The notes: generated from the letters alone by a model not told the origin. Shown: positions 34,590 to 35,040, counted from the stretch's first letter. The stretch is 37,329 nt of DNA from a virus (IMGVR_UViG_2850808358_000008:1-37329), one strand, 5' to 3'. Made by a program: numbers and translations.

Positions 34590-34677
34590 CAGGCAGAATT
34601 GCCGGAATAACAAAAAAGCGATAGATTACGCGCGGGTGCCTTTCGGCTGATGGTCGGAGGGAATACCCGAAGGCCAG

Positions 34678-34914
34678 ATGTGGAAAGGCCCCGGAAAACA
34701 TTTTTGTTTAACCGAGGCCCTAACACTTCTTACCTTCGCAAGTAGAAGGTTAGCGCCTCTCCTCTCAGGAGACAAGCGTTATGACGCAAATTCCGTTAAA
34801 AACCCTGTTACTTTGCATAACTGCGGTAGCGATAATCTGGATCCTCCACACATCACCGTGCGAGTTACGATTCAGGTTTGCTGGCACGGAAATTGCGGCA
34901 TTCTTACTATGTAA
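34678..34914 (+). CDS. mok: mok-like ORF overlapping hok
   Basis: 78-aa ORF in a different frame overlapping the hok ORF, as in hok/mok/sok loci. Start uncertain. Confidence 0.4.
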   Translation: MWKGPGKHFCLTEALTLLTFASRRLAPLLSGDKRYDANSVKNPVTLHNCGSDNLDPPHITVRVTIQVCWHGNCGILTM

Positions 34915-34921
34915 TAAGTAA
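34781..34921 (+). CDS. hok: Hok/Gef-family type I toxin (46 aa)
   Basis: MTQIPLKTLLLCITAVAIIWILHTSPCELRFRFAGTEIAAFLLCNK: N-terminal membrane helix plus the C(E)LR(F)R...E(V/I)AAF signature of Hok/Gef peptides as recalled. Confidence 0.7.
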   Translation: MTQIPLKTLLLCITAVAIIWILHTSPCELRFRFAGTEIAAFLLCNK

Positions 34922-35009
34922 GATAACCGCGGCGGGGGAGTAATCCCCCGTCAATCGGTTGCTAAGGTTGGTCGAAACGGCACCCTATCTCACAGACATG
35001 AACAACAAA

Positions 35010-35040
35010 CCCGCAGCGTAAAAACTGCGGGTTTTCTTTT
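35010..35040 (+). terminator. Rho-independent terminator downstream of hok
   Basis: CCCGCAG-loop-CTGCGGG stem followed by TTTTCTTTT. Confidence 0.6.

Follow-up and report, generated by a model that had tools for sequence, protein, structure and literature searches.

Does the DNA just beyond the late-gene activator ogr in a P2-like prophage encode a working type I toxin-antitoxin switch, and, if so, what would such a switch do for the phage that carries it? The window analysed here, meaning the whole stretch of 37,329 nucleotides, holds a P2-like prophage between pdxB and flk, with the integrase gene cut by the left edge. A first-pass annotation made from the sequence had described an intact-looking hok/mok locus at 34600-35040, carried as prophage cargo between ogr and attR, with a Sok antisense promoter that could not be placed by eye. 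Its coordinates were near base-exact, as the complete locus spans from the -35 hexamer at 34599 to the end of the terminator T-run at 35041 (Table 1). Our reading, to which we assign a probability of about 0.8, is that the sequence specifies a functional-looking hok/sok-type type I toxin-antitoxin module with an RNA switch built like that of R1 parB. The locus is real and intact, but it belongs to a well-known family, is widespread and has already been annotated.

Table 1. Features of the hok/sok locus and its surroundings, in window coordinates
Feature	Position	Strand	Basis or remark
gpD	33048-34286		5' of ogr
ogr (late-gene activator)	34329-34589	+	Pfam Ogr_Delta, 52.4 bits; directly 5' of the hok locus
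hok promoter	34599-34627	+	-35 TTGCCG (34599-34604), 17-nt spacer, -10 TAGATT (34622-34627)
hok mRNA, full-length, inferred (408 nt)	34634-35041	+	Rfam alignment and fold; predicted +1 is G34634
5' arm	34634-34651	+	Common to two mutually exclusive helices, fold-back inhibition or tac-like local
mok-like ORF, 78 codons	34678-34914	+	Frame differs from hok; function doubtful
Sok antisense RNA, inferred (about 57-60 nt, ends approximate)	34682-~34740	-	Start 7-8 nt after the -10
tac-like local partner of the 5' end, GAAAGGCCCC	34683-34692	+	Fold of the 3'-truncated RNA 34634-34962
Sok-target hairpin in the hok leader	34687-34719	+	Folds; helices 4 and 5 of the covariation count; its complement is the Sok terminator-like stem-loop
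Sok promoter	34747-34775	-	-35 TTGTCT (34775-34770), 17-nt spacer, -10 TAACCT (34752-34747)
Hairpin hiding the hok Shine-Dalgarno AGGAG (34767-34771) and the A of AUG	34751-34781	+	Minimum free energy fold
hok toxin gene, 46 aa, MTQIPLKTLLLCITAVAIIWILHTSPCELRFRFAGTEIAAFLLCNK	34781-34921	+	Pfam, PHROG, invariant residues, codon pattern
G+C-rich 3'-UTR hairpin, conserved	34925-34960	+	Helices 15 and 16
Fold-back (fbi) 3' arm, GUUGGUCGAAACGGCACCC	34967-34985	+	18 bp with 34634-34651
Intrinsic terminator of hok	35007-35041	+	10-bp stem and T-run; conserved, with compensatory changes (helix 17)
com-like zinc-ribbon gene	35162-35368	+	Pfam Zn_ribbon_Com, 44.5 bits; between hok and attR
DNA methyltransferase	35313-36104	+	phrog_67, 210 bits; amber TAG at 35511-35513, a pseudogene here
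attR region	36147-36240		Int arm-type sites (ATGTGGTCACTGCGTGGACA), IHF-like A/T stretch, then the junction at 36213; resembles the annotated P2 P arm and IHF site
flk	from 36334		Host gene 3' of the prophage

The 46-aa ORF that had been proposed as the toxin is present and belongs to the Hok/Gef family. It scores 33.8 bits against Pfam HOK_GEF (PF01848), above the curated cut-off of 22 (E = 2.5e-8), through a match of residues 9-44 to profile positions 7-42 of 42, and its product scores 50.6 bits against phrog_251 ('MokW-like host killing'). It shows the length, the hydrophobic N-terminal segment and the C-terminal Cys-Glu...Glu-x-Ala-Ala-Phe motif of the family, and alignment with P88 Hok, R1 Hok and five close relatives shows no variation at C12, C27, E28, R30, E37, A39, A40 and F41. 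Two narrower NCBIfam models score well below their cut-offs, namely the HokA equivalog NF007290 (27.7 bits vs 89) and the Hok subfamily NF007279 (25.2 bits vs 73). On these profile comparisons, the protein represents a separate 46-aa subfamily and no equivalog of K-12 HokA. Among the hok codons, 36 variable sites fall at position 3 and 19 at position 2, and the comparison with the nearest allele gives a synonymous to non-synonymous ratio of 10:4 in the hok frame vs 1:10 in the mok-like frame. As judged by codon pattern, the hok frame is under purifying selection. RefSeq already annotates WP_032140709.1 ('Hok/Gef family protein') at the same place in the closest genomes, where the locus is 99.2-99.4% identical and about 3 of 471 positions differ, none of them in a promoter hexamer; the window adds one more well-preserved hok/sok locus at a place that annotation pipelines already label. 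Membrane toxicity has been shown experimentally for HokW and R1 Hok (PMC8621323).

The other parts of the module were judged by their conservation among relatives. A single 46-aa query returned only six close proteins because it is so short, and an alignment query was used instead; it recovered 79 loci in IMG/VR with Hok proteins at 48-100% identity to the query. After addition of the window and P88, the set comprised 59 distinct sequences, which come from three genomic contexts and were used for the conservation of both promoters; 29 representatives that share at most 98.5% identity were drawn from them. In the hok promoter, TAnAnT stands exactly 6 nt 5' of GGGTGCC in 59 of the 59 distinct relatives, TTGCCG is kept at the 17-nt spacing in 49, and the geometry equals that of the 933W hokW locus. 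A sigma-70 scanner reported neither this promoter nor that of Sok, because its thresholds exclude both TAACCT and the pair TTGCCG/TAGATT.

The predicted start of the hok mRNA agrees with Rfam RF01794 ('sok'), positions 1-157 of which align to 34634-34792 on the plus strand with 47.0 bits (E = 3.4e-9). The same model matches 933W hokW with 113.5 bits; this match is on the sense strand of hok and extends from GGGTGC at the start to the AUG of hok, and RF01794 therefore describes the hok leader, with its position 1 at 34634. An Rfam scan of the whole window at the gathering threshold returned no hok/sok family, and RF01794 was found at a permissive threshold; its 47.0 bits stay below the gathering score of 59, although the match is full length. 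Since P88 likewise reaches 47.9 bits, the low score is a trait of the subfamily and not a sign of decay. A widespread 46-aa Hok subfamily is thus missed by the Rfam sok model at its gathering threshold, and its Sok RNA is unannotated.

The predicted 408-nt RNA folds with -168.5 kcal/mol (z = -8.4), and 0 of 100 shuffles were as good. Across the 29 representatives, 81.2% of the cells of the full-length structure are paired, compared with 34-47% when the 3' partners are slid, a measure that is inflated because the structure is the window's own fold; less affected are the slid controls and the compensatory counts, with 25 pairs changed on both sides as against 7-12 in the slid structures, and the observed value is attained in none of 500 shuffles. 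The fold-back helix that joins the 5' arm to the 3' arm is paired in 82.7% of cells and has both-side changes in 6 of 18 pairs, and at columns 11/364 the pair is CG in 15 sequences and GC in 14. Over the whole window, 13 of 9326 segments of 32 nt pair with the 5' arm at least as well as the true partner, whose duplex has -27.3 kcal/mol, which places the partner in the 0.1% tail; these 13 include three trivial antisense segments and the local alternative partner. Duplex energies of cognate and non-cognate 5' and 3' arms (-30.4 vs -28.3 kcal/mol) are uninformative because the helix core is invariant. The alternative 5' helix is paired in 95.8% of cells, with two compensatory pairs and a score that 0 of 500 shuffles reach. 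These two exclusive helices, which share the 5' end, are both conserved in the alignment of relatives, which is a hallmark of hok mRNAs.

The same alignment covers the hairpins around the toxin gene. The outer stem of the Shine-Dalgarno hairpin (helix 7) is paired in 100% of cells and has one compensatory pair, and in the 3'-UTR hairpin helix 16 is paired in 99.6% of cells, with four compensatory pairs counted for the hairpin. The downstream terminator that had been noted by eye is found as described, as a hairpin and T-run at 35007-35034, and the region 34500-35200 holds four terminator-like sites where 0.8 are expected.

The Sok promoter, which the first-pass annotation regarded as not placeable by eye, can be placed on the minus strand, as TTGTCT-17-TAACCT. 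Among the 59 distinct relatives, 58 keep the -10 hexamer TAACCT and 56 have TTGnnn at a spacing of exactly 17 nt; TAACCT shares only 3 of 6 positions with the consensus and is identical to the -10 of sokW. The annotated sokW of 933W begins 7 nt past this hexamer, and the 6-nt gap is the same here. This analogy puts the putative start of Sok at about 34740/34739 and its end near 34682, in the UUUCC that follows a stem-loop. The antisense strand folds into a 5' tail and a stem-loop followed by UUUCC, with -27.8 kcal/mol (z = -4.3).

The mok-like ORF fared less well. A reading frame that overlaps hok does exist as had been claimed, but it is not a conserved part of the locus, as about 33 of the 59 distinct relatives, including P88, have no ORF with an ATG, GTG or TTG start that reads across the hok start; most lambdoid-phage copies are among those that lack it. 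Where such an ORF is present, it starts at -130, -103, -100, -76, -46 or -28 and stops at +80 or +131, and indels in the variable part of the leader shift its frame freely. The 78-aa product in the window matched no Pfam, NCBIfam or PHROG family. An in-frame extension of hok like that of mokW was also considered and is excluded by the TAG at 34751-34753. As far as the reading frames can tell, mok is unproven here and is no conserved element of the subfamily. In R1, mok is required for the translation of hok. Because there is no conserved mok frame, Sok probably acts here through mRNA cleavage and structure and not through an obligatory mok-hok coupling, and the subfamily could reveal how activation and repression of a hok mRNA work when translation is not coupled.

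Put together, these parts suggest the following switch. The sigma-70-type promoter TTGCCG-17-TAGATT would direct transcription from G34634, and in the 408-nt mRNA the 5' 18 nt would pair with 34967-34985 into a closed molecule that is held by fold-back inhibition. Without the 3' arm, the 5' end would turn to local pairing with 34683-34692, and the hok ribosome-binding site and AUG would be kept in a conserved hairpin. By analogy with R1 and hokW-sokW, the full-length mRNA would be stable and inert until slow 3' trimming strips the fold-back arm and allows refolding. TTGTCT-17-TAACCT on the opposite strand would produce an unstable Sok of about 60 nt (about 34740 to 34682) that is complementary to the leader, and as long as Sok is made, the refolded RNA would be bound by it and cut by RNase III, again as in those two systems. 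Once the supply of Sok ends, because the element is lost or because prophage induction or an infecting phage shuts off transcription, the stored mRNA may be translated, and the 46-aa Hok would insert into the inner membrane and depolarise it. The switch is well supported at the level of sequence, and its kinetic logic is borrowed from R1 and hokW-sokW. Every RNA part and the toxin are intact, and all parts match the consensus of the 59 relatives.

The R1 hok/sok system (parB) is the founding type I toxin-antitoxin system, and the locus shares with it a small Hok-family membrane toxin, an mRNA 5' end of the form GG(G/C)UGC, a 5'-3' fold-back helix upstream of the terminator, an alternative tac-like 5' helix, and an antisense promoter, predicted here, whose -35 overlaps the hok ribosome-binding site and which lies between that site and the target hairpin. 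It differs in that Hok has 46 aa instead of 52 and is 26% identical, in that mok is not conserved and the score against the Rfam model, which was built on R1-like leaders, stays below gathering, and in that its carrier is an integrating phage and not a plasmid. The hokW-mokW-sokW system of 933W and Sp5 is likewise prophage-borne and shares the Sok -10 TAACCT and the spacing from the hok -10 to GGGUGC, but it is a different locus, with a HokW of 51 aa, an in-frame mokW extension and a sokW of 71 nt. In Sp5, experiments have shown hokW-sokW to be a toxin-antitoxin system that depends on RNase III and Hfq and promotes the release of the phage (PMC8621323).

Closer likenesses are found among other phages. 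The hok gene of P88 and other Xuanwuvirus members (SF19_gp52, 'MokW-like host killing') also stands directly after ogr and is 82.8% identical over 452 nt, but its Hok is only 48% identical, the window carries another core allele, and P88 lacks the com gene and the methyltransferase on the 3' side. An unannotated hok after lom in lambdoid and Stx phages shares the 46-aa subfamily (63-67% identity), the RNA architecture and the lack of a conserved mok, while the phage type and the neighbours differ and the fold-back partner is GGCUGA/UCAGCC with compensatory changes. The identification of these lambdoid relatives with hokW was considered and rejected, as hokW/mokW/sokW of 933W lie at 58460-58734 and the relative is the unannotated locus after lom.

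The locus is not unusual cargo. It stands at a fixed distance behind ogr in P88-like phages and is annotated both in RefSeq and in P88, and 1262 of 5426 complete E. coli genomes have a match to 34590-35060; when each record is represented by its best match, 41 reach at least 95% identity and 921 fall at 80-90%. The phages P88, Chuche, Shae_phiSM, P884B11, PhiR44_2 and 500465-2 match at 80-83% identity and many Stx-converting phages at about 76%, and canonical P2 is absent among the sequenced-phage matches listed. In 41 of the 79 IMG/VR loci, ogr lies at -450 to -452 nt; it is at -494/-499 nt in four more, from a lineage whose ogr is 51% identical, and at -1287 nt in one. The other loci belong to other contexts, and in the one that was inspected, in an annotated phage, hok lies just 3' of a lom-like membrane-protein gene. 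One Salmonella enterica genome has the identical order gpD-ogr-hok-com-methyltransferase, and besides this copy the species-level scan returned only distant Enterobacterales Hok genes. Our literature searches yielded no paper connecting hok to ogr or to phage P88.

The allele in the window is a mosaic. Compared with the P88-type copies in the same context, it is 100% identical over 34612-34700 and 34991-35030 and only 40-70% identical over 34740-34910. Two other loci (L013 and L014) are 80-97% identical to it over 34714-34900 and unrelated outside the locus; L014 adjoins a delta/ogr-like zinc-finger gene and an integrase near hpt. From these comparisons, the core, which comprises the template of the Sok 5' tail and the toxin gene, appears to have been swapped between elements, with the leader and the 3' UTR, both conserved, as possible homologous flanks for the exchange.

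The position of the locus in the prophage bears on its possible roles. In the E. coli strain EC291, a 98.7% identical arrangement is annotated between pdxB and flk. Prophage-free genomes, including K-12, align only from 36213 on (query position 114), which sets the junction between phage and host there, and hok is inside the prophage, about 1.3 kb from this right junction. The order ogr, hok, attR given by the first-pass annotation stands, with the amendment that hok does not abut attR, the com-like gene and the methyltransferase lying in between. This right end is also seen at a second attachment site, adjoining raiA, and on this ground hok, com and the methyltransferase are the phage's own. 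A 13-nt repeat (CACTGCGTGGACA, at 16-28 and 36154-36166) was considered as the att core and rejected; it resembles P2 Int arm-type sites, and the junction is at 36213. The prophage further contains an IS3-family element (9572-10812) and a ParM/StbB plasmid-partition pair (8003-9278).

It was also correct that an intact locus sits distal to ogr where canonical P2 has only a terminator and attP. The P2 annotation places the terminator of the ogr transcript and F operon 10 nt after ogr, followed by attP, and the interval from ogr to int holds nothing else. Here, a terminator scan of 34500-35200 found none before 35007, so that the interval from the stop codon of ogr (34589) to the +1 of hok (34634) is free of terminator-like sites, and a P2-type terminator with arm sites appears only 3' of the methyltransferase (36110-36170). 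For these reasons, the hok and com/methyltransferase modules lie between ogr and the point that corresponds to the end of the P2 late operon. Such an insertion between ogr and the end of the late F operon predicts read-through into the toxin gene in the late phase: without a terminator in the ogr-hok interval, late transcription should continue into hok, and the terminator at 35007-35041 probably also ends these ogr read-through transcripts.

For the role of the module we would rank help in lysis and release before stabilisation of the element, and the latter before abortive infection. As a lysis helper, which is a statement on biological role and is compatible with the switch mechanism, late ogr read-through would swamp Sok, and Hok would depolarise the membrane and hasten or complete lysis and release. 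We hold this reading tentatively. It is favoured by the missing terminator at 34589-34634, where P2 has that of ogr and the F operon, by the fixed spacing of ogr and hok in two divergent P2-like lineages, and by the halved release of Sp5 after deletion of hokW-sokW (PMC8621323), although the latter precedent is indirect, as hokW is a different locus from the Stx-phage relatives of the window. A transcript extended at its 5' end can, moreover, still form the inhibitory helices, which counts against this reading.

Stabilisation, which the first-pass annotation had also considered, would mean that loss of the prophage or of an excised episome kills the cell because Sok decays faster than the hok mRNA. 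An integrated prophage, however, is copied along with the chromosome, and P2-like prophages rarely excise spontaneously. We know of no episomal state for the P88-like lineage, which also counts against this explanation, and we regard it as somewhat unlikely. In its favour, ParM/StbB is carried in the same prophage (8003-9278) and is present in 5 of the 6 distinct P2-family phages that have most of the hok locus, and stabilisation is the classical role of R1 hok/sok (summarised in PMC8621323); deletion of hokW-sokW, on the other hand, had no reported effect on growth under normal conditions (PMC8621323).

Abortive infection, in which a lytic phage would stop host transcription, Sok would decay and Hok would kill the cell while the phage cycle is still incomplete, seems unlikely to be the main role. 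P2-like prophages are known to carry anti-phage genes such as tin and old (P2 annotation), but the locus lies outside the classical variable regions of P2, and its fixed position suggests a core accessory rather than a swappable defence cassette. A link of R1 hok/sok with phage defence is cited in PMC8621323 (its reference 27).

Among phages, ParM/StbB at 94-99% identity is confined to P88-like phages. A wider and decidedly improbable reading would join the partition pair with the toxin module. ParM/StbB (8003-9278) and the mok-less hok/sok between ogr and the position of the P2 terminator would then be lineage-wide fixtures of P88-like phages and homologues of both R1 stability systems. These integrating phages could then pass through a plasmid-like episomal phase, for instance once excised, with active partition and with Hok as the policing agent; it could also mean Sok control without mok coupling in this subfamily, with the core seemingly swapped as a cassette among P2-like phages, lambdoid phages and a satellite-like island.

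That the locus is instead an inert relic without an active toxin, comparable to several IS-disrupted hok loci of the K-12 chromosome, is very improbable: the amber codon of the methyltransferase and the IS3-family element (9572-10812) point to decay of nearby cargo and the Rfam and NCBIfam scores are below threshold, but all elements are intact and match the consensus of 59 relatives, the hok frame appears to be under purifying selection, only about 3 of 471 positions differ from the nearest relatives with no promoter hexamer affected, and the low Rfam score is common to P88. The amber codon itself is a change from CAG to TAG relative to two intact homologues of the methyltransferase.

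The core of the hok locus, comprising the Sok 5'-tail region and the toxin gene, is recombinant. It is 80-97% identical to the copy in two IMG/VR relatives of the locus (L013/L014), whereas the flanking sequence is 100% P88-type; P88 is a P2-family phage with a hok locus directly after ogr. In L014, the neighbours of the related core copy are an integrase near hpt and a delta/ogr-like zinc-finger gene. The hairpin loop targeted by Sok, the inferred antisense RNA, occurs in three variants, and because these are found across different clade backgrounds, an exchange of Sok specificity is suggested.

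Features of the prophage stretch discussed here, with window coordinates
Feature	Window position	Strand	Basis or content
isrK	4177-4251		Rfam, gathering level, 63.6 bits
C4 antisense RNA	4287-4374		Rfam, gathering level, 80.5 bits
ParM/StbA gene and StbB-type partner	8003-9278		Pfam: StbA_N 275 bits, ParM_N 229 bits (ParM/StbA); Plasmid_stab_B 86 bits (partner)
IS3-family insertion sequence	9572-10812		orfA with HTH_Tnp_1, orfB with rve domains
IS009 sRNA	25823-26021	+	Rfam, 218.5 bits, strong, full-length match
hok core	34714-34900		Sok 5'-tail region and toxin gene
Inverted repeat	35042-35065		perfect, 10 bp
com-like zinc-ribbon gene and DNA methyltransferase	35162-36104		com-like gene overlaps methyltransferase start

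Directly 3' of the hok terminator lies the inverted repeat GGTGCCCTCA caaa TGAGGGCACC, which is present in hok copies that are followed by com/methyltransferase and absent in P88, and the com/methyltransferase module may have its junction there. The arrangement of the two genes in this module recalls the translational control of com/mom in phage Mu. The methyltransferase gene is interrupted by one amber mutation: at 35511-35513 it reads TAG where its intact homologues from two other genomes read CAG.

The Stx2 phage 933W (NC_000924.1) appears to have two hok loci in total, one being the annotated hokW/mokW/sokW at record positions 58460-58734. The other is a candidate, since the corresponding hok is annotated in the same neighbourhood of the 933W-related phage Lyz12581Vzw; it would be an unannotated 46-aa member of the window's subfamily, located between lom and ST933Wp67, which are separated by a 430-bp gap, at about 45.4-45.9 kb of the record.

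The ParM/StbA and StbB-type genes inside this P2-like prophage are a type II partition pair of the plasmid kind. Among the sequenced phages compared, P88-like phages alone had the pair at 94-99% identity; in the 91-kb phage D6 the identity was 47%. With the partition pair and hok/sok, both stability systems of plasmid R1 thus have homologues in one integrating phage. The IS3-family element sits just downstream of the stbB-like gene, and the prophage may therefore be damaged around this insertion.

Structured RNAs were also matched elsewhere in the prophage. The adjoining isrK and C4 matches (4177-4374) lie in its early region and make up an antisense-RNA control element of the P1/P7/P4 kind, for immunity or anti-repressor control. 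The IS009 sRNA match falls among the tail genes.
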